64,000 bases of DNA from Promethearchaeota archaeon (GTDB lineage Archaea > Asgardarchaeota > Lokiarchaeia > Sigyniarchaeales > SOKP01). A program made the position numbers and the translations under genes. The stretch covers positions 6,710-70,709 of the forward strand of contig JAGXOA010000008.1 of assembly GCA_019894715.1 (NCBI GenBank), given 5' to 3'. Shown in pieces: positions 107 through 64,000 of this stretch. Each line of letters starts with the position of its first letter. Position 1 is the stretch's first letter. Under the pieces are notes generated by a model. That model saw only the letters and a program-made list of their open reading frames with translations, did not search any database and was not told the origin of the DNA.

Positions 107-1721
107 CTAAATTTTCCCCTAGTATTTTAAATATATCTTTTTTATCAATTTTTTTTACTGGAAAATTAGTATACAAACTATCTCCTCTTAATTCATCATA
201 TTTGATTGTCGAACTAATTGGAAAAAATCCAGAATTATTTCCAATAATAGATCCTGGAAGTGCTGCTGTCTGAGCTTCAAAAGTCACATTATCTCCCATT
301 GTAGTTTCAAAATATGTTAAATTTTCTTCTCCATATACTCCATCAACTACATGATTTGTTATGTGAGAAAAAGTTCCCAAATAGCAATTTTTACCAGTAT
401 TTACATTACTATGCAAGAACGTTTCTTCAATTATTGTTCCCTTTCCTATTTTATTAGATCCAAGAAATCTAAGTTCCCAATTTATCAACCAAGGAAATGG
501 TGAACGTATAAATGCAAAAATAGGATATTTAAATAGAAAAGATTTAAAATGATAATAAAACAATGCTTTGGCATCATTATCTAGATTTCTATCAAAAATT
601 CCTTGATTAGGACCTCTTTTTTTAACATACTTATAAATAAATCTAGTATTGCAGGCTACAAAAAATAAATGTAAAAGATACATCCCAATAAATACAAGAG
701 GCAAAGTTAACAAAATTAAAATAATTTTTATGTTTAAAAAAAAGTCTAATTTAATAGAAATTAATAATAAATTAGGTTCTAAAAATCCATGAAAATATGA
801 AAAGAATAAAATACCAGGAAGGAAAAAAGAAAATCCACAAATTATCCAACCAGAAGCTATATAAATATGAAAAGCAATTCCTAATTCTTTATTTTCATCT
901 TGAAAATTATCTTTTTCTTTGATTTTTGGTTCAATTTCATTTTTAATCACTTCTTCAAAAAATATTTTTTTATTCTGAATAATTGATTTTTTATTTATTT
1001 TTTTACAAGGGCTTCCTCTGTATATACTTTCAGTTTCTAAAATTTGATTTATTTTAGTTGATGAATTGGCATCGATTATTGTATTCTTTTTTATTTTAGT
1101 ACCTGGAAGAATAACAGAATGTATTCCAATAATTACATTATCATCTATCTTAACTTTTTTTAAAATTAATTTATCTTGAATTATCATACTTGATAAAATT
1201 AAACTACCTTGTCCTAGTTTAACATTGTTTCCAATCTCTATAAATTCAGTATCAATCCATCCTTCATGGAGAGATACTTTCCCTTTTATATTAAGTCCAA
1301 ATACTTTTAGAATATATATTTCAAAACATGGAATTGAAATTTGTCTTCCAATCCAAATGGGCCATTTTTTAATAATTGCTCTAATACTCCAATAACAATA
1401 ATCCTTATCTTTCTTATTTCTATAAAAAACACCTTCTCTTGGTTTGTGCATTAAATTGGCTAGAGATAAAAATATTTTTGATATAAAGAGACTGCTAAAA
1501 AGAAGTATAATAATACCTACTACAAAGATAAAAGGAAAGAATATATAAAATTGAATTGATTCGGTTGGAAGTAATTGCCAATATCCCCAGAACATCCAAA
1601 TAGAAGGTTGAGCACCTAAAATCATAATTAATAAATATAAAATTAAATAACGGTTTTTTACAAGAGTATTTGTTGTTCTAGGACCTTGTCTCAAGGATGA
1701 TGGCGTAGAAATAGGGATCAC
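96..1721 (-). CDS. polytopic membrane protein with two hexapeptide-repeat (left-handed beta-helix, acyltransferase-like) domains
   Basis: 541-aa ORF. Hydrophobic helices (YLILYLLIMILGAQPSIWMFWGYW, FYIFFPFIFVVGIIILLFSSLFI, GWIICGFSFFLPGILFF, ILILLTLPLVFIGMYLLHLFFV) alternate with two hexapeptide-like blocks (IEIGNNVKLGQGSLI..VKIDDNVIIGIHSVILPGTKI and TMGDNVTFEAQTAALPGSIIGNNS). Confidence 0.6.
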   Translation of the reverse strand: MIPISTPSSLRQGPRTTNTLVKNRYLILYLLIMILGAQPSIWMFWGYWQLLPTESIQFYIFFPFIFVVGIIILLFSSLFISKIFLSLANLMHKPREGVFYRNKKDKDYCYWSIRAIIKKWPIWIGRQISIPCFEIYILKVFGLNIKGKVSLHEGWIDTEFIEIGNNVKLGQGSLILSSMIIQDKLILKKVKIDDNVIIGIHSVILPGTKIKKNTIIDANSSTKINQILETESIYRGSPCKKINKKSIIQNKKIFFEEVIKNEIEPKIKEKDNFQDENKELGIAFHIYIASGWIICGFSFFLPGILFFSYFHGFLEPNLLLISIKLDFFLNIKIILILLTLPLVFIGMYLLHLFFVACNTRFIYKYVKKRGPNQGIFDRNLDNDAKALFYYHFKSFLFKYPIFAFIRSPFPWLINWELRFLGSNKIGKGTIIEETFLHSNVNTGKNCYLGTFSHITNHVVDGVYGEENLTYFETTMGDNVTFEAQTAALPGSIIGNNSGFFPISSTIKYDELRGDSLYTNFPVKKIDKKDIFKILGENLDGK

Positions 1722-3683: not shown

Positions 3684-3963
3684 ATATCATCAAAAAAAAT
3701 AATAAAAATATAAATATTTGTTATAAATTTTTATTAATAATTCTTAACACACCATCTCTTTAATAATCTCTCTTTTCTATATCTCTAATAAAACATCATA
3801 TTCAAGGTATATAAAAAAGAGATTATTAAAGAGATCAATAAAGATTAGCATTGGAATTTTGATATTATTATGAGATGATTTCCCTCATTTATGGAATAAT
3901 ATTCTCATTTCGAGAAAAATGATCATGAGCCTTCATCTATCATAGTTAGACTAAGACGACCTC

Positions 3964-4101
3964 ATGAATGGTAAAGTAGTCGGAGATGATTCCTTTGGGA
4001 ATTTATTCGATAGAGGTAACTGGTTTTGGCCTGTACGAATAAGGGATAAGATCCAAACTTCGTATGAACAAATTGTAGTAAAAAATGTTAATATTATTTA
4101 A
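3964..4101 (+). other. 45-codon micro-ORF inside Family-A copy 1 (coding status unproven)
   Basis: ATG 3964, TAA 4099-4101, reading [45 protein letters not shown]. The same frame is open with identical length in copy 2 (27016-27153). No Shine-Dalgarno-like sequence upstream. Confidence 0.3.
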
Positions 4102-4117
4102 CATTTTTACTATTTTT
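4078..4117 (+). terminator. hairpin plus T-tract at the 3' end of Family-A copy 1
   Basis: gtaaaaaatgttaa / tatta / ttaacatttttac forms a 13-bp stem with one bulged A, followed by tattttt. The identical structure occurs at 27130-27169. Confidence 0.55.
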
Positions 4118-4124
4118 GATAACC

Positions 4125-5321
4125 TTATTCTTGATTAATTTTATCATAATAAATAATATCATTAAAAATCTTTATTAATATCTTTATAATGTTTCTGGGA
4201 TTACCTTCTGACTTATTATAGATCTTCTTTAAAATACTTTTACTTAGAGGATAATATGGATTTTTGAAATCAGATAATATTTCGGAGGAATTGATTGATT
4301 TAAGAAATTTATCGATCGTAAGTTTATAGAATTTATAGATATCTTCTTCCTTAAAATTAGATAAAAATAATGGTTCTTTTAGATTATTTGATAGTTCTAT
4401 ATTCTCTTGTTTAAATAACTTTTTTATTTCATCTAAAGAATTTTTAGAATTCAAAGTAATAATTTTCTTTAAATTCTTGATATTTTGCAATTCAGAAATT
4501 TTACCTAAGATATTTTTTGCAACAATATTATCAGAAGACTCTTCTGCACCATAATACCAGCTAGAATCAAAAAAGGTTTCAATTTCTTCTTCTTCCTTCA
4601 TTAGAGTAATAATTTTATCAAAATCATCAATAAAAATAATAGTGCCTAGCTTAGAATTTTCTATCAATACTTTTAACATAGTAAAGGCATTTTTTTTATT
4701 TCTTAGATCATTCTCGACATCTAATAGGGCAAGTTCTCTTATATTCATAAGTTCTCCTAATAAATAATCTTCAGCATCTATTCTTTTATATGGATCTAGT
4801 TGATGTGAGGTTATAACATTTATAATATCATTTAAAGAATTTTTATCCCCAAAATCATCTTTCCATTTATTAAGCGCGTTACTTCTTGCTTTTTGGATAT
4901 CAGGTATCGGAAAGAATCCATACTTCTTTTCCAGACCACTCCAATTATTGCACAATTCTTGTGTAATCATTCTAAGGTTTTCTATTCCTAATTCTTCAAT
5001 AAATTCAGAATATAAGTTAAAATAGAATTTTCTGTAAATATTATCTAAGGATATATAGATAATATTAAACTTATCTTTAAGATTCATTTTAAGAGACCAA
5101 AATAAATGGGTTTTACCAACACCAATATCTCCAAGAATAGGTAAAATAAAACCCTCATTTTCAGTTACAAATTTTATTAAAGAATTTAAAAAATGTCTTC
5201 TTGAATCGACAAAATCTAATAATTCCTCTATTTCACCTGTAGCTACAAAATTATTAAATGGATTTATTTTTATTTTTAATAATTTTAAGAATTTGAGTTT
5301 TAGGTTTTCCCACAGAAGCAA
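4125..5321 (-). CDS. AAA+/ORC-Cdc6-like P-loop ATPase (archaeal-ATPase type)
   Basis: Walker A ILGDIGVGKTHLFW, Walker B IIFIDDFDKI, and a C-terminal lid-like SEGNPRNIIKILIKIF resembling the GxxR lid motif of Cdc6-like AAA+ proteins. Confidence 0.65.
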   Translation of the reverse strand: MLLWENLKLKFLKLLKIKINPFNNFVATGEIEELLDFVDSRRHFLNSLIKFVTENEGFILPILGDIGVGKTHLFWSLKMNLKDKFNIIYISLDNIYRKFYFNLYSEFIEELGIENLRMITQELCNNWSGLEKKYGFFPIPDIQKARSNALNKWKDDFGDKNSLNDIINVITSHQLDPYKRIDAEDYLLGELMNIRELALLDVENDLRNKKNAFTMLKVLIENSKLGTIIFIDDFDKIITLMKEEEEIETFFDSSWYYGAEESSDNIVAKNILGKISELQNIKNLKKIITLNSKNSLDEIKKLFKQENIELSNNLKEPLFLSNFKEEDIYKFYKLTIDKFLKSINSSEILSDFKNPYYPLSKSILKKIYNKSEGNPRNIIKILIKIFNDIIYYDKINQE

Positions 5322-8556: not shown

Positions 8557-8663
8557 TTTTTTTCTTGCCTTAAAATTTGTTTATATATGGGAGGAGGATA
8601 ATTATTATTGTTTCTATTGGTTTATATTTATTAATAAATCTCTATAAATTTTTGTATAATTCA

Positions 8664-8835
8664 AAAAAGAATTTTACTATTTAGATGAATGACATAGTTA
8701 TTCTATAAACTAACAACCTCCTATTATTTATATCTCTATAATTTCAATAAAAACATAGGTTGAAGAACCATCTTGTATTCTCTAATATCATATTAGGGAG
8801 TACGAATCTACTACCTTTAGGTAGTGATAGTTCAA
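8664..8835 (-). repeat. Family-B hairpin-ended repeat, copy B-8
   Basis: The reverse complement reads TTGAACTATCACTACCTAAAGGTAGTAGATTCGTACTCCCTAATATGATATTAGAGAATAC...GATATAAATAATAGGAGG. It is colinear with 48684-48830. It lies about 70 nt past the stop of the co-oriented peptidase gene. Confidence 0.75.
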
Positions 8836-15211: not shown

Positions 15212-15510
15212 TTGAACTACCACTCCCTAAAGGGGGATGGATTCCTTCTTGCTTGAAAATTATCCAAAAAGATTCTGAAGAATCTCTTTAGGTCTTACAT
15301 TATCTCCAAAAGCGTGGTTTCCCGTTGTCCCAACGATAGATGTATCATCATGTATGATTGTGTGATATATCTCTCTTTTTGCAATATTCTAATTCCTTCC
15401 TCAATTAGATTAAGGGAAGTATTTTCATCCTATCATTACAATGCTGTGTTTTTCTAATTTTTTTAAAATCATGCTTAATTCATAACTCCCATAAATGGAG
15501 GTGTTTTCTT
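15212..15510 (+). repeat. Family-B hairpin-ended repeat, copy B-15
   Basis: Starts TTGAACTACCACTCCCTAAAGGGGGATGGATTCC. Ends AACTCCCATAAATGGAGGTGTTTTCTT. The interior differs from other copies. Confidence 0.6.
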
Positions 15511-15602
15511 AAGCATTCATGATAAAAAAAAGACTTATTATTCATAATTAGGATTGATTTCTAACAAAAACAAAAAGAGCTTAAAAGAGAAAGATGAATG
15601 AA

Positions 15603-26571: not shown

Positions 26572-27015
26572 GATGGAACAAGTTATTGAGATTAAATTGA
26601 TTTATAAAATAATTATATTTTAAGATATAATAGTTATAACTATCATATAATAAAAATCTTAAATATTATTGTTTGTATTATTTCTATTATTATTATTCAT
26701 TATGAACTTTTCTCACAATCATATCATCAAAAAAAATAATAAAAATATTAATATTTGTTATAAATTTTTATTAAAATTCATTCATCGTAATAAATAGACC
26801 AATAATTAAATTATTAATAATTCTTAACACACCATCTCTTTATATAAGATCTTTTCTCTTTTCTATCTCTCTAATAAATCATATCATTAATAAAGACTAG
26901 CATTGGAATTTTAATATTATTGTAAGAGGATTTCCCTCATTTGTGGAATAATATTCTCATTTCGAGAAAAATTATCATGATCTTTTATCTGTCATAGTTA
27001 GACTGAGACGACCTA

Positions 27016-27153
27016 ATGAATGCTAAAGTAGTCGAAAACGATTCTTTTTGGAATTTATTCGATAGAGGTAACTGGTTTTGGTCTGTACAAATAAGGGACA
27101 AGATCCAAACTTCGTATGAACAAATTATAGTAAAAAATGTTAATATTATTTAA
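27016..27153 (+). other. 45-codon micro-ORF inside Family-A copy 2 (coding status unproven)
   Basis: [45 protein letters not shown]. Same length and frame as copy 1. Confidence 0.3.
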
Positions 27154-27169
27154 CATTTTTACTTTTTTT
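27130..27169 (+). terminator. hairpin plus T-tract at the 3' end of Family-A copy 2
   Basis: Same stem-loop as 4078-4110, followed by ttttttt. Confidence 0.55.
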
Positions 27170-27223
27170 GATAACCTAATCAAAGCTTAATCTTATTAAA
27201 AAAAGCAAAATTTATCAAAATAT

Positions 27224-40342: not shown

Positions 40343-40666
40343 CTAATGGAAAAAAAAAGGATATTGGATTGCACAGCGCATAATCCGTTCCTTGAGCATA
40401 GTCTTGGCAGGGTGAGTGCTATATATCTCATTAAGCTTCAATTTGTTGTAAATATTCCGTTTCACGTGCGCTTTGGACTCTCTTGAAAAATCTAACAAGG
40501 ATAACTGACCAGTACTTAGTTTATCAAGAAACAGAGTAAGGTAGGTATTTTCCAGCTCTCGAAAGGCAATCATTCGCTCCTTGATACGTTGGTATATACC
40601 ATTCTTATCCAGATTGTTTGGAATCAACGATACGGTTCGAGTAATGATAGGTGGGGCAGACGTCAT
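40343..40666 (-). pseudogene. tnpB: truncated tnpB (only ~107 N-terminal codons; RuvC-like part and omega-RNA region absent)
   Basis: MTSAPPIITRTVSLIPNNLDKNGIYQRIKERMIAFRELENTYL... resembles TnpB/OrfB N-termini. The ORF ends right after an A9 run, 18 nt from the hypF stop codon. Confidence 0.55.
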
Positions 40667-40776
40667 CGGGAAAAGATAGAAGAATTTTTATATATATAAA
40701 ACAATGGACATGAATCTATTTAAACCATGGGAAGGTCAAGATTTTTTAAATTTCATAATGTTGAGATTTGTAAGAT

Positions 40777-41373
40777 TCAAGCGTCCTTCATTAATTTTTT
40801 TCCCGAGCACCTCATTCGATACAATTTCCCACTAAATGGATGGATGATGGCCACCAAGTCATCTACCATCTCACTTTCTGGACTTTTTTTATCCAATTCA
40901 TGCAAGTAATTGACAGAGACGTTAAATTCTGCTAAATAATTTTGCAAATATTCAAATCCAAACCTAGTGAGCCAGTCCTTATACGTCAGCAGGACATGCG
41001 AAAAACAATTTTTTCTCGCATCTCGCACCATTTTCCACAGATTTTTCCGGCGGATATTCAATCCTGAAGCTACGTCCTTGTAAACATGATTTACCTTTAG
41101 ACCGATTTTTTTTGCATGCTCTTTGAGTTGTTCCACTTGCCGTTCCAAGTCACCTCGCTTGGATTGTTTGTGTGAGGAAACTCTTTCATAAATGACGCAG
41201 GTGTTTTTAAAACTTGAATGAGGATGAGATATTTCTTGTTTATAGGAATTCTTAAGTATTAATCGCTTGATTTCGAGAACAGGAAATCGTCGATGACCTC
41301 CCAGAGTTCTTACGCAAGTAATTTTTCGCTTTTTTTCCCATCGACGTAGAGTCTTGATGCACACTCCAAGCAT
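40777..41373 (-). CDS. tnpA: IS607-type serine recombinase transposase (MerR-like HTH plus resolvase catalytic domain)
   Basis: HTH LGVCIKTLRRWEKKRKI and catalytic VIYERVSSHKQ..DLERQ. The homologous frame continues upstream (..YIIGITAL before the first Met) without a canonical start codon. Confidence 0.8.
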   Translation of the reverse strand: MLGVCIKTLRRWEKKRKITCVRTLGGHRRFPVLEIKRLILKNSYKQEISHPHSSFKNTCVIYERVSSHKQSKRGDLERQVEQLKEHAKKIGLKVNHVYKDVASGLNIRRKNLWKMVRDARKNCFSHVLLTYKDWLTRFGFEYLQNYLAEFNVSVNYLHELDKKSPESEMVDDLVAIIHPFSGKLYRMRCSGKKLMKDA

Positions 41374-41771
41374 GAGGGCTGTAATTCCAATGATATATAT
41401 AAAGAAAAAGATTTAATAAGAAGATTTAAAGTTTTGAATTATCTGCGTCGTATATCCATTTAAATAGTGTCCAGATTCGTCTATAATTTCGGAAACTATG
41501 ATTTACCCAGCTTCTTGGACTATATCATTTAAAAAAGCATTTGAAGTGCTTTATTATTTTTTTGAGAAAGGAGATAAAGCTCCATGGATCACATGGCAGG
41601 AAAATTGATTACTACCAAAATAATTTGAAGATTTCATCAATTTATGTTTCTTAAAGTAGTTTTATTGTATAATAAAATATCATGGGTTCAAAAGCTTTAT
41701 TTTAAAAATCAAAAAAATAAAATCTTTTGAAAAATTATAAATAATAAAAAATAATAAGAAGGTATTTATTT

Positions 41772-46139: not shown

Positions 46140-46255
46140 AATTTTTTACCTTATTAATATTGAATTATTATTAATTTATATCAAATATGTTCAATTATAA
46201 AGTTTGCTAAAAATTCTCTCTTAAAACTAAATCTAATAATTTATCATAATAACAA

Positions 46256-46845
46256 AAGAAAGCCCATTCCTTTAGGGAGGAGACAAATTTTGTTATAAAA
46301 ATTATTGCAAAAATCACTAATCGATATCATACCTTATTCTTAAATATAGGAAAATATTGATAATATCAGGGTTGATCATAGCTTACAAAAATCTTGACAA
46401 ATATCTGGACATTTTTTAAATTATTATTAGATTAGAAGGTTTTTTTATAATTTTATATATAGAAAAAAATCTATACTCATTTTATATATAAAATTTAGAA
46501 AATCAAGCTCGACTTTTTCTTTATATATGAATGTATATTATGAAGATAGCAAAAAAAAAAAATAGAATTGATAATATAAGAAAGAAATTATTATATTTTT
46601 CTCATTGGAATTAAAAATAAAGTGAAAGAGGATTTCCTTCAAATCGAGAAGAAATTATAAATTCTTTGGCTATGTCTATATGGTGTAGTCATGATCGTCC
46701 GTTGCCGATCCCTCAGGAGGTCATTTATTGATGTCCATAAATGTCCAGATTTTTTGCAACGGTAGAGAACAATTCTATAGTGTCTAAGATTCTCATTGAG
46801 GTTTAGGGACTGCAAATCCACTTCATTTAGGTATTGGTAGTTCAA
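46256..46845 (-). repeat. Family-B hairpin-ended repeat, long copy B-46 (~590 bp, with internal cargo)
   Basis: The reverse complement starts TTGAACTACCAATACCTAAATGAAGTGGATTTGCAGTCCCTAA and ends TCTCCTCCCTAAAGGAATGGGCTTTCTT. Both termini are colinear with the ~194-bp copy at 58521-58714, and about 380 bp of extra sequence lies between them. Confidence 0.7.
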
Positions 46846-48159: not shown

Positions 48160-48687
48160 ATGGAATTAGAGAAAAATATAAAAATACTGATACACGAAAG
48201 AAATATTCAAAAAACTATAAAAGAAATAGCTCAAATTATAAATAAAGATTATCGAACTAAAAATCCCATATTAATATGTGTTTTAAAAGGCGCATGTATT
48301 TTTTTTGTTGATTTAATTCGTTATTTAAATATAGAAATTGAAATTGAGTTTATTGAATTATCCAGTTATGGAGCAAATATTGAAAGTTCAGAAAAAGTTA
48401 AAATAATTAAATGGTTAACATCAGATATAGAGAACAGAGAAATAATCATCATAGAGGATATTGTTGATACAGGGATTACTATAGATTTTCTCATTAACAA
48501 ACTTAGTGAATGTAATCCTTTATCTATTAAATTATGTTCATTAACAAGTAAACCAACCAAACGAAAAAAAAAAATAAAAATAGATTATATAGGATTTGAA
48601 ATTCCAGATAAATTTATTATTGGTTATGGGTTTGATTTGAATGAAAAGTATAGAAATTTAAGAGATATTTATTATATTGATGATTGA
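48160..48687 (+). CDS. hpt: hypoxanthine/guanine phosphoribosyltransferase
   Basis: Preferred ATG at 48160 (MELEKN). Motifs ILICVLKGACIFFVDL, the PRPP loop IIIIEDIVDTGITI, and IGYGFD. Confidence 0.85.
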   Translation: MELEKNIKILIHERNIQKTIKEIAQIINKDYRTKNPILICVLKGACIFFVDLIRYLNIEIEIEFIELSSYGANIESSEKVKIIKWLTSDIENREIIIIEDIVDTGITIDFLINKLSECNPLSIKLCSLTSKPTKRKKKIKIDYIGFEIPDKFIIGYGFDLNEKYRNLRDIYYIDD

Positions 48688-48880
48688 ACTACCTCTACCT
48701 AAAGGAAGTGGATTCGAACTCCCTAATATAATATTAGACAATACTGGATGGTTCTCCAACCTATGTATTTATTGGAATTATAGAGATATAAATGATAGGA
48801 GGGTGTTAATTTATAGAAGAATTATGTAATTCATCCACTCCTTAAAATAAGTGGCTTTCTTGCATATAAATGGTAAAAAG
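48684..48880 (+). repeat. Family-B hairpin-ended repeat, reference copy B-48
   Basis: TTGAAC (48684-48689) overlaps the hpt stop codon. Hairpin 1 is CTACCTCTACCTAAAGGAAGTGG and hairpin 2 is CCACTCCTTAAAATAAGTGG, followed by CTTTCTTGCATATAAATGGTAAAAAG. Confidence 0.75.
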
Positions 48881-58334: not shown

Positions 58335-58520
58335 TTTGGTTTTTATTTAGATGTATTAAACTCAAATTTATATCAACTATGTATAATTATTCCTAATTTA
58401 TTTAATGAAAAATTAGACAATATAAAGAATATTTTCTGATAATATTTTAGTTTTTTTTTTAATAATAAAATATTACTAATAACCTATTGATAAAGTAGGC
58501 AAATTTTTCTCTAATAATAA

Positions 58521-58714
58521 AAGAAATTCCCTTCTTTTAGGGATGGGATGAATTTAAAAAAAAGAAATATTGTAAAAATCCTTAATTGATATCACAACCA
58601 ATTCTTAAATAGAGAAAAACATTAATTAGGGTAGAGAAATATCCTGTAGTGTCTAAGATTCTCATTAAGGTTTAGAAACTTAAAATACACTTCCTTTAGG
58701 TAGTGGTAGTTCAA
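58521..58714 (-). repeat. Family-B hairpin-ended repeat, copy B-58
   Basis: The reverse complement starts TTGAACTACCACTACCTAAAGGAAGTG..AACCTTAATGAGAATCTTAGACACTACAGG and ends CATCCCATCCCTAAAAGAAGGGAATTTCTT. It is colinear with both ends of B-46. Confidence 0.75.
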
Positions 58715-62628: not shown

Positions 62629-62680
62629 TTGAACTACCAACACCTAAAGGTAGTGGCCTTCTCGCATATAAATGGTAAAA
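62629..62680 (+). repeat. Family-B minimal copy B-62 (the two ends only)
   Basis: TTGAACTACCAACACCTAAAGGTAGTGG is joined directly to CCTTCTCGCATATAAATGGTAAAAAAA. This equals the first ~28 nt and last ~27 nt of B-48 with the ~140-nt interior missing. Confidence 0.7.
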
Positions 62681-62685
62681 AAATT

Positions 62686-64000
62686 ATGTCAAGTAAAAAA
62701 TATAATAATCTTATTAGTGAGAAAAGCCCATACTTGCTCCAACATTCAGAAAATCCTGTTAATTGGTATCCATGGGGGGACAAAGCATTTTCTAAAGCTA
62801 AAAAAGAGAATAAGCCAATCTTTCTTTCAATAGGGTATTCTACATGTCACTGGTGTCATGTTATGGCTCATGAATGTTTTGAAGATCAAGAAATGGCTAA
62901 ATTAATTAATGAAAACTTTATTTCTATAAAAGTTGATAGAGAAGAAAGACCAGATATAGATAAAATCTACATGTTAGTTTGTCAAATGTTAACTGGCTCT
63001 GGAGGATGGCCTTTAACAATAATAATGACTCCTGAAAAAAAACCATTTTTTGCAGGAACTTACTTTCCTAAGTACTCTAAATATGGACATATCGGTTTAA
63101 TGGATTTAATTCCACGAATAAATATGATCTGGCAACATCAAAAAGAAGATATCAACTTATCAATAGAGAAAATAACTAAAGCGCTTCAAAAAAATCTTAA
63201 AGAGATTCCTTCTGAAAAATTAACAAAAAATGTACTTAATACTGCATATAATCATCTTAAAAGTATTTTTGACAATGATAATGGTGGATTTGGGATAGCA
63301 CCAAAATTTCCTAGCCCTCATAATATCATATTTCTTTTACGATATTGGAATAGGACAGGAAAAAAAGAAGCATTAGATATGGTTAAAAAATCACTTGATA
63401 AGATGAAAATGGGGGGGATTTACGATCATATTGGATTTGGGTTTCATAGGTATTCAACAGATCAATATTGGCATGTTCCTCATTTCGAAAAAATGCTTTA
63501 TGATCAAGCATTAATGGCTTTAGCATATTTAGAGACATATCAAGCGACTAAGGATGAAGAATATGCTAAGATAGCAAGGGAGATATTCACATATATAGAG
63601 AGAGATATGATTTCTATAAATGGTGGATTTTTTTCTGCTGAAGATGCTGATAGCGAAGGTATTGAAGGAAAATATTATTTATGGACCAAAGAAGAAATTG
63701 ATAAAAATTTCAATAATGAAGAGATAAGGTTAATATCTGAAATATTTAATGTTAAATATGAAGGAAATTATTTAGATGAGGTATCAAGTAAGAAAAATAA
63801 GAAAAATATACTTTTCCAAAAATTTTCTATTTCAAAATTAACAAGTAAACTAAATATAGATTTAAAAGAATTTAAAACGAAATTAGAAGAAATTAGAATT
63901 AAATTATTCATGATTCGAAATAAAAGGATAAAACCATTTAGGGATGATAAAATTCTTACAGATTGGAATGGATTAGTAATAGTAGCCTTAGCGAGAGGAG
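62686..64000 (+). CDS. thioredoxin-domain protein of the DUF255/YyaL (SPATA20-like) family, 3'-partial
   Basis: ATG 62686. [33 protein letters not shown] and [11 protein letters not shown]. The frame is open to the window end. It is absent from the track because it has no stop. Confidence 0.8.

Follow-up and report, generated by a model that had tools for sequence, protein, structure and literature searches.

Six copies of a hairpin-ended, size-variable repeat are present in a 64,000-nucleotide stretch of contig JAGXOA010000008.1 (positions 6,710 to 70,709; here called the window), part of a Lokiarchaeota metagenome-assembled genome (MAG; assembly GCA_019894715.1). These repeats are, very probably, palindrome-associated transposable elements (PATEs), i.e., nonautonomous deletion derivatives of IS608-like members of the IS200/IS605 group of insertion sequences (IS). 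The initial annotation of the window had already likened them to derivatives of single-strand (HUH/Y1) transposons of this group, and that assignment holds, since the same ends bracket tnpB, with or without tnpA, in other genomes, carry the recognition code of IS608, and are missing from orthologous sites in related genomes. As such, the repeats represent a well-known kind of mobile-element debris, not a new system.

The decanucleotide TTGAACTAYC, found at one end of every copy, has six exact matches in the window, compared with 0.39 ± 0.53 in dinucleotide-preserving shuffles, none of which (0/100) reached six. A covariance model of this end (R1), seeded with 39 distinct ends that all came from loci outside the window, recovered the same six copies at 26.8 to 51.2 bits (E values of 1e-7 to 4.5e-3; Table 1). 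Since the next-best R1 match in the window scored 14 bits, the census of the window is complete at six, and both R1 and the motif count agree with the places initially assigned to the copies. A second covariance model (R2) was built for the opposite end, with copies 2, 3, and 4 included in its seed. It detected these three copies, as well as copy 5, which was outside the seed (42.0 bits), and copy 6 (22.5 bits); copy 1 was the only copy in the window left unmatched by R2. The second terminal hairpin that had been proposed for all copies is therefore present in copies 2 to 6 and has decayed in copy 1. As R1 and R2 are distinct models and both match copies 2 to 6, the ends are asymmetric.

The imperfect palindrome reported next to TTGAACTAYC is a genuine hairpin. 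Across the 39 independent outside sequences, 90.7% of the cells pair and compensatory changes are seen in 4 of the 8 hairpin pairs, amounting to 56 cells, versus 21.6 ± 3.8 in shuffles; controls in which the alignment was slid were all far lower. The outer hairpin columns were set by the search pattern and are uninformative in this respect, whereas the four central pairs were free to vary. Repeat finding and blastn confirmed that the interiors are size variable and only partly homologous, and divided them into three lineages: copies 1 and 4 group together, as do copies 3 and 5, while copy 2 stands alone and copy 6 is a short single-hairpin form. With lengths of 46 to 601 nt, all six are too short to hold a transposase gene. 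In line with the initial description, no terminal inverted repeats and no target-site duplications were found at any of the six copies, and the empty orthologous sites discussed below align directly across the junction. A search of the window against Rfam at gathering thresholds and an ARAGORN tRNA search both returned no match; a tRNA-like reading of GGATTCGAAC was dropped.

Two features of the original description had to be revised. First, the polarity is reversed: what had been taken as the 5′ end, TTGAACTACC followed by a hairpin, corresponds in reverse complement to the right end of the transposon, which on the transposon strand is laid out as GAAT-CC(N)NNNCC-TTTA-GGNNN(N)GG-TAGTTCAA/ (where the slash indicates the cleavage point). 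Likewise, the hairpin followed by CTTTCTT is the left end; on the opposite strand, CTTTCTT reads AAGAAAG, within which the left guide AAAG lies. Second, the left boundary lies approximately 10 to 20 nt past the coordinates given initially, at TTAC or TTAT. In full-length elements, the left end seen upstream of the TnpB/TnpA genes has the layout TTAC/CATTTATATGCAAGAAAG-hairpin-GATGAATT. In summary, the top strand of the element reads as follows: a TTAC or TTAT target and the cleavage point; a spacer of about 18 nt ending in the guide AAAG or AAAA; the left imperfect hairpin; GATGAAT; a variable core; the guide GAAT; the right imperfect hairpin; and TAGTTCAA up to the second cleavage point. The target is located 18 nt 5′ of the foot of the left hairpin, the left guide being directly 5′ of that foot. 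GAAT precedes the right hairpin in 39/39 right ends, even though it was absent from the search pattern, and TCAA ends the element.

These are the recognition features of IS608 from Helicobacter pylori, in which the left cleavage (target) site is TTAC, the left guide is AAAG, the right cleavage site is TCAA, and the right guide is GAAT. In that element, the guides sit 5′ of each hairpin foot, the left hairpin is separated by 19 nt from the cleavage site on its 5′ side and the right hairpin by 10 nt from the one on its 3′ side, and altering the left guide alters the target (PMC3201880, PMC5934647). All four recognition tetranucleotides are identical in the family described here. Because its ends match the left and right ends of IS608, integron attC, CRISPR-like, and C/D-box interpretations of the repeat were dropped.

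The family provides a further, internal indication of how its targets are chosen. In 17 outside elements and 4 of the window copies, the left end directly follows TTAC or TTAT. TTAC is paired with the left guide AAAG in nine cases (retrieved sequences, given here by L numbers, L006, L011, L012 [two sites], L013, L050, L066, and L095, and copy 4), TTAT is paired with AAAA in seven (L016, L021, L026, L060, L061, L081, and copy 2), and in L024, TTCC is paired with AAGG. In other words, target and left guide covary at their final base across elements, the exceptions being the decayed copies 3 and 5. This covariation is the footprint expected of transposon-directed target choice and, as a pattern read from sequence, constitutes the strongest argument that a Y1 TnpA would be the enzyme moving these elements. 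The family offers naturally occurring data on the IS608 rule, whereby the guide tetranucleotide of an element selects its target, and in these data the rule shows up as covariation.

Relatives in other genomes were collected with the pattern TTGAACTAYC-N4-CCTAAAGG, which was scanned over 185,579 genomes (one per species) and yielded at least 95 stretches. Among the matches listed, most are in Asgard MAGs (Promethearchaeota/Loki-, Hel-, Borr-, Sif-, Odin-, and Heimdallarchaeota), with similarity extending well past the motif in most of these; one Bacteriovoracaceae MAG holds many copies, and a few scattered bacterial matches look like chance. On the opposite strand, an open reading frame (ORF) of 395 to 440 amino acids runs into the motif in L006, L011, L013, L021, L024, L049, L060, and L067 and, as a second clade, in L016 and L050, which brings the Asgard loci in which a TnpB-sized ORF runs into this right end to at least 10. 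The four ORFs that were scanned (L013, L021, L050, and L016) match the Pfam families OrfB_IS605 and Cas12f1-like_TNB, and one clade also matches HTH_OrfB_IS605. Two loci, L013 (Loki) and L067 (Heimdall), have a Y1 transposase gene upstream of tnpB; that of L067 encodes a protein with a match to Y1_Tnp (E value, 1e-35), while the L013 protein was identified by reading its translation. The left end, in turn, was located upstream of the tnpB and tnpA genes in the full-length elements. Thus, full-length elements with tnpA or tnpB between these ends, a search for which had been proposed at the outset, were found in other Asgard MAGs. Public Asgard MAGs already annotate the TnpBs as such, and IS200/IS605 elements have been reported in >65% of Asgardarchaeota genomes (PMC13343696).

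Several window copies can be tied to particular full-length relatives. The 1.4-kb element in L050, whose TnpB belongs to the second clade, is matched at both of its ends by copies 3 and 5 (blastn), and copies 1 and 4 have a right-end-proximal block in common with L040, L037, and L026; judged by these alignments, copies 1, 3, 4, and 5 are derived from the second TnpB clade. Copy 2, on the other hand, is a remnant of a clade-1 element. Compared with the 1422-nt element in L021 (blastn), it has lost about 1.1 kb of the interior, with about 90 nt remaining at the left end and about 225 nt adjoining the right end, and it still holds the last ~65 tnpB codons (15230-15429; 70 to 77% identity to residues 360 to 425 of the L021 TnpB by tblastn). 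Short elements are likewise found in other Asgard MAGs, including L026 (~116 nt), L012 (~207 nt), L095 (~247 nt), and L066 (~264 nt).

The same terminal code was encountered outside the archaea. In the Bacteriovoracaceae MAG CBDCYX01, an element with this terminal right end (GAAGCAAGAATC-hairpin-TAGTTCAA) is present in >25 copies, at loci that include L005, L007, L019, L022, L027, L028, L031, L038, L041, L051, L052, L055, L057, L069, and L072, among others. Its TnpB is 34 to 39% identical to the Asgard clade-1 TnpBs, and its left end is not detected by the Asgard left-end model. By sequence, the right-end code is conserved across domains, and the same terminal code is common to TnpB clades that are only 22 to 39% identical, across Asgard archaea and one Bacteriovoracaceae bacterium.

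Independent evidence for insertion came from comparisons of presence and absence, all of which are between species (neighboring proteins being 62 to 72% identical). Copies 3, 4, and 6 are missing from the syntenic loci of related Lokiarchaeota, and no target duplication is seen. The clearest case is copy 4, downstream of hpt. Four loci with hpt homologues (62 to 66% identical) share the gene order (NTP-transferase, a 169-amino-acid gene, …, a 167-amino-acid gene, hpt, amidohydrolase, and PAS kinase), with a spacer between hpt and the amidohydrolase gene of 127 nt in L104, 126 nt in L105 and L106, and 92 nt in L107, versus 344 nt in the population represented by the window; neither R1 nor R2 found a match in L104 to L107. 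When the flanks of copy 4 are joined at the inferred boundaries (ATTGATGA/GTAAAAAGAG), the result aligns with the orthologous spacers, and the reconstructed empty site, GATGA/GTAAAAAG, aligns with the element-free loci L104 and L105. The joined flanks also restore a GAG TAA stop at exactly the position of the orthologs' stop. In the window, the terminal T-TGA of copy 4 now supplies hpt with the third base of its last sense codon and with its stop codon (TGA at 48685-48687; region 48682-48687), which has changed the C terminus of the encoded protein from …IDE* to …IDD* (Glu to Asp at the last residue). A boundary shifted by a single base outward would make hpt 19 codons longer than any homologue, which supports cleavage right after TTAC.

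The two other sites tell a similar story. At the copy 3 site, the spacer is 203 nt in L107 versus 786 nt in the window, and the joined flanks align across TTTTAT/ATTCC. At the copy 6 site, the syntenic loci L108 and L109, which come from the same samples and encode a nitroreductase with 72% identity, have a spacer of 24 nt, and removing the 46 nt of copy 6 makes the window spacer comparable to these; R1, the sole model run on L108 to L110, found nothing above background there. The comparison of filled and empty sites that had been suggested was thus successful for copies 3, 4, and 6 between species, whereas no such pair was found at the strain level.

By analogy with the biochemistry of IS608, a Y1 (HUH) TnpA supplied in trans would bind both hairpins on single-stranded DNA, with the cleavage sites, TTAC/ and TCAA/, being located through base pairing with the guide tetranucleotides rather than by the protein itself. 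The element would then exit as a single-stranded circle and insert 3′ of another TTAC or TTAT, as in the "peel and paste" cycle of IS608. On this model, the circle junction would read TAGTTCAA/CATTTATATGC and an empty junction would read, for example, TATATTGATGA/GTAAAAAGAGAC. Neither target duplications nor inverted repeats would be produced. Deletions of the core probably generated the size classes, and recombination between two similar hairpins might have given rise to the 46-nt single-hairpin form.

The preferred target would also explain where the copies lie. As initially noted, TTGAAC is at or next to two stop codons, with copies 4 and 6 touching or nearly touching them, while copies 1 and 3 lie 73 and 81 nt, respectively, past the stop of a convergent gene. 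On the complementary strand, TTAC or TTAT, usually after a run of T's, reads as GTAA or ATAA with A's behind it; a TAA stop with an A-rich spacer is therefore a natural target, which would place copies at gene ends, convergent with the gene, as at hpt, and no host function is needed to account for their position.

TABLE 1 The six PATE copies and a nested insert in the window (strand refers to the transposon strand; R1 and R2, scores against the right-end and left-end covariance models)
Feature	Position in window	Strand	Length	Description	R1 (bits)	R2 (bits)
Copy 1	~8646-8835	+	~190 nt	Subfamily a; right end intact (8796-8835)	48.9	
Copy 2	15212-15521	-	310 nt	Internally deleted clade-1 TnpB element	51.2	70.8
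Copy 3	46245-46845	+	601 nt	Subfamily b PATE with nested 399-nt foreign insert	26.8	63.2
Nested insert in copy 3	46362-46760	unassigned	399 nt	21-nt inverted repeats (46394-46414 and 46739-46759), 86% complementary		
Copy 4	48684-48872	-	189 nt	Subfamily a PATE	43.7	63.9
Copy 5	58510-58714	+	205 nt	Subfamily b PATE	32.3	42.0
Copy 6	62629-62674	-	46 nt	Single-hairpin "terminal-only" element	30.0	22.5

The individual copies differ considerably in their state of preservation. Copy 2, located between divergent gene starts, has the target TTAT and the left guide AAAA, and both of its ends look intact. Copy 4 has its right end, with the GAAT guide, the hairpin, and TAGTTCAA, at 48684-48723 and its left end at 48822-48872, the target TTAC being just outside the element on the minus strand (48873-48876). 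Copy 1 is 85% identical to copy 4 over 165 nt, as determined by pairwise alignment; the same alignment reveals that its left-end hairpin has decayed, such that its left boundary is approximate and the copy is probably immobile, judging from its sequence. Copy 5 resembles the L050 TnpB element at both its left end (89% over 38 nt) and its right end (77% over 87 nt; blastn) and departs from the consensus at both guides (each AAAT) and at the target (TTTC), so that it, too, is probably immobile by this measure. Copy 3 is decayed as well, with AAAT instead of GAAT as right guide, three mismatches in the right-end hairpin, and a TTAT target that is mismatched to the left guide AAAG. The recognition features are thus still intact in copies 2 and 4, whereas they have been lost from copies 1, 3, and 5, which are fossils.

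Copy 3 owes much of its length to the nested insert, and the sequences on both flanks of this insert of about 400 nt are common to copies 3 and 5. Over 53 nt, one end of the insert shows 75% identity to a stretch (41458-41508) immediately upstream of the gene for an IS607-type serine recombinase in the window, which suggests that the insert may be an IS607-related miniature element that entered a PATE; it does not itself belong to the PATE family. Copy 6, finally, occupies the short spacer between the nitroreductase gene and a thioredoxin-like gene; in it, a single hairpin joins the left spacer of subfamily a (CATTTATATGCGAGAAGG) to the right tail (TAGTTCAA), and the target is TTAC at 62675-62678 on the minus strand.

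Some copies have left traces in public annotations and assemblies. A 49-amino-acid ORF has been called inside copy 4 (L099, 3521-3670; window, ~48677-48826), and the start of the 711-amino-acid thioredoxin-like gene has been called inside copy 6 (L001, 10589; window, ~62653), while the true ATG of that gene is likely the one at 62686. Three independent short assemblies of the hpt locus (L101, L102, and L103; Logan/ENA) all break 95 to 111 nt into copy 4. Breaks of this kind are typical of a repeat and hint at further, more similar copies elsewhere in the genome. For the Lokiarchaeota MAG, then, PATEs explain several intergenic oddities, supply the hpt stop codon, and mislead gene callers; the current understanding of such elements is unchanged by these findings.

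A number of results weigh against this interpretation or limit its reach. In agreement with the initial annotation, a tblastn search with TnpA and four TnpBs revealed no intact gene in the 64-kb window and only the 65-codon remnant in copy 2, and the closest TnpBs retrieved with matching source labels (P0265 and P0266) come from other samples. An empty site at the strain level was not found: exact-protein look-ups for hpt gave only contigs of the same population, all with the element, and scans of JGI metagenomes for the filled and the predicted empty hpt junctions gave zero hits each, a result that is uninformative because the population is not in that collection. Copies 1, 3, and 5 have degraded recognition features, and copies 1 and 4 are only 85% identical, which makes current mobility of the window copies doubtful. 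Regarding the core, the matches to an Rfam small RNA family, HPnc0580, that are described below fall under the gathering score, and single-sequence folding of the right-end-proximal regions was not significantly better than that of shuffles in 4 of 5 copies (z, −0.9 to −1.6), with copy 1 being the only one for which folding was significant. In addition, the hpt protein cluster has a single member in the database searched, and loci with an identical TnpB (L111 to L117) turned out to be one locus across several samples, from which no boundary information was gained.

Among the alternatives, a system of repetitive extragenic palindromic (REP) sequences, in which single palindromes are spread by a domesticated REP-associated tyrosine transposase (RAYT), is suggested by the shortest forms. 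Besides copy 6, single-hairpin miniature elements of 46 to 48 nt with precise ends are present in L047, L061, L064, L073, and L081, at several unrelated loci within one genome, and RAYTs are related to Y1 TnpA. Nevertheless, we consider such a system highly improbable, as two different ends, with the asymmetry and spacing typical of IS608, are present in five of the six window copies; the miniature elements keep the left-end spacer and the right-end tail, as core-deleted PATEs would (a 52-bp terminal-only form is documented in Haloquadratum); and the window lacks a Y1 or RAYT gene, the Y1 genes in related loci being inside IS elements, beside tnpB. The pairs L047/L064 and L061/L073, each within one genome, have the same core and unrelated flanks, a pattern that fits either transposition of the miniature elements or recurrent hairpin-to-hairpin deletion. 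Only tentatively, and as the less likely of outcomes, might the 46- to 48-nt forms (copy 6, L047/L064, and L061/L073) themselves be mobile units, excised and pasted by an IS608-type TnpA. If they are, Asgard archaea hold REP-like minimal single-strand transposons, with IS ends in the process of turning into genome-wide hairpin repeats. In L061 (1959-2080; a Promethearchaeia MAG), a second, different left end (TTTTAAC…GCGAAAGAAGT-hairpin-GATGAATT) starts about 10 nt past the right end of the 47-nt miniature element, which could reflect a tandem insertion or a targeted insertion beside an existing element.

The core of the PATEs raises the question of whether they once specified RNA. The guide RNA of TnpB (omega RNA) is encoded over the tnpB 3′ end and the right end of the element, and PATEs have been reported to often encode omega RNAs that must be used in trans (PMC10055086). 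In the elements described here, the 90 to 225 nt retained next to the right end are homologous to the tnpB 3′ end plus the right end; the tnpB 3′ stretch in copy 2 is the region where a guide-RNA scaffold would be expected to be specified. The noncoding copies 1, 3, 4, and 5 keep a block composed of GGTAGAGAAC.ATCC…TGTCTAA, a size-variable stem, TTAGGGA, GAAT, and the hairpin, and the GGTAGAGAAC block is also found in the L050 and L040 elements, being coding sequence in L050. A consensus fold of six sequences comprises three helices, with compensatory changes in 9 of 33 pairs. The L021 TnpB 3′ region (1600-1682, minus strand) matches Rfam family RF02269 (HPnc0580) at 33.8 bits (E, 0.0019; gathering score, 37), while copy 2 (15256-15351, minus strand) yields only weak matches to HPnc0580 (22 bits; E, 0.24) and STnc300 (E, 0.5), and an Rfam search of copies 3 and 4 with an E-value threshold gave no match. 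It is a reasonable inference from this conservation that PATE cores retain an omega-RNA scaffold. The window copies probably once specified omega RNAs that would have been usable in trans by TnpB, with the flanking DNA serving as the guide, and the L021 match suggests that HPnc0580 may be the guide RNA of an IS605/IS608-type element of H. pylori.

Conceivably, this conserved block could instead point to domesticated guide-RNA genes, with omega-RNA-like transcripts regulating host genes via TnpB or a nuclease-dead TnpB-like protein; indeed, the guide positions of copies 4 (hpt) and 6 (nitroreductase) would be antisense to the 3′ ends of these genes. We nonetheless give this idea very little credence: conservation of the sites does not extend to related species, several copies show visible decay, no TnpB-like gene is present in the window, and a right-flank guide matches only the empty donor site beside TTAC, which follows the logic of selfish homing and not that of regulation.

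Finally, the alternative offered in the initial annotation, namely, that the repeats are host 3′ untranslated region or terminator-associated RNA modules tied to particular genes, draws on the gene-end positions of copies 1, 3, 4, and 6 and on the left-end hairpin followed by the T-rich CTTTCTT, which could incidentally favor archaeal termination, but is already largely refuted and strikes us as barely credible, given that orthologous hpt genes, nitroreductase genes, and 149/169-amino-acid gene pairs in related Lokiarchaeota lack the sequence, that the same ends bracket tnpB and tnpA in other genomes, that copy 2 lies between divergent gene starts and holds decayed TnpB codons, that the stop-codon positions are accounted for by the target (TTAC being the complement of GTAA), and that the RNA-like strand is antisense to the neighboring gene at both hpt and the nitroreductase gene.

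As for the surroundings of the PATEs, the window is AT rich (G+C content, 21 to 33%), and its genes encode, among others, archaeal TFIIB, a Roadblock/LC7 protein, a VWA protein with a RING-like finger, NiFe-hydrogenase subunits, and HypF; the hpt and nitroreductase products correspond to the Candidatus Lokiarchaeota MAG proteins MBY9005229.1 and MBY9005240.1, respectively. Several ENA and Logan assemblies hold contigs nearly identical to the window. A second repeat family is represented by two copies (3684-4133 and 26721-27185) of about 450 to 465 nt that are 90 to 98% identical, with small indels, and is probably the "Family A" of the initial annotation. Its 3′ half is richer in G+C and ends in the hairpin AAAAATGTTAATATTATTTAACATTTTT followed by TTTTTGATAACC; neither copy has a match in Rfam or to the PATE end models, and a 39-nt piece of it resembles positions 46603-46641, within the copy 3 insert. 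The IS607-type TnpA gene (40777-41373, minus strand) encodes a MerR-like helix-turn-helix and a serine-recombinase (Resolvase) domain. Beside it, a 107-amino-acid ORF (40343-40666, minus strand) has no Pfam match, and since no recognizable TnpB follows TnpA, this locus (40343-41373) looks like a remnant.

Among the known systems closest to the family described here is IS608 itself. Asymmetric ends with subterminal imperfect hairpins, and the lack of inverted repeats and target duplications, are found in both; the target is 18 nt from the left hairpin here versus 19 nt in IS608, and the right hairpin is 8 nt from the cleavage point versus 10 nt. Further points of likeness are the hairpin loop TTTA, the presence of tnpA and tnpB in full-length relatives, and the near-threshold match of the TnpB 3′ region to the H. 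pylori small RNA family HPnc0580. In contrast to IS608, the host is an Asgard archaeon, the window copies are gene-less, many members use TTAT with AAAA, and at least two TnpB clades, 22 to 26% identical to each other, have the same terminal ~35 nt. Gene-less PATE-like elements are also known from Geobacillus stearothermophilus (Meers et al. 2023); these have the same ends as the resident TnpB/IscB IS elements and have been proposed to be moved by TnpA in trans and to provide omega RNAs used in trans by TnpB (PMC10055086). There, the cognate TnpA, TnpB, guide RNAs, and homing have been tested experimentally, whereas here everything beyond the anatomy of the elements is inference. With REP/RAYT systems, the family shares short extragenic hairpins handled by a Y1/HUH enzyme, and the 46-nt form resembles a REP; REPs, however, go with a single domesticated RAYT gene and have neither an IS-derived left spacer and target nor a right tail.

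Another close match is provided by the PATEs of the haloarchaea Haloquadratum walsbyi and Natronomonas. As defined by Dyall-Smith et al. in 2011, PATEs lack inverted repeats, have near-terminal palindromes, cause no target duplication, and are too short to encode a transposase; the haloarchaeal ones derive from IS605-type elements by repeat-mediated core deletion, 52-bp "terminal-only" forms, suggested to be mobilizable, are found at multiple sites, and other small elements often insert into them (PMC3119063). The elements in the window belong to another phylum and sequence family, with end motifs that match IS608 itself, and are few in number, at six copies in 64 kb. Yet they have all of the defining features of the haloarchaeal PATEs, and the likeness extends to the single-palindrome forms of about 50 bp and to nested insertion, as seen in copy 3.

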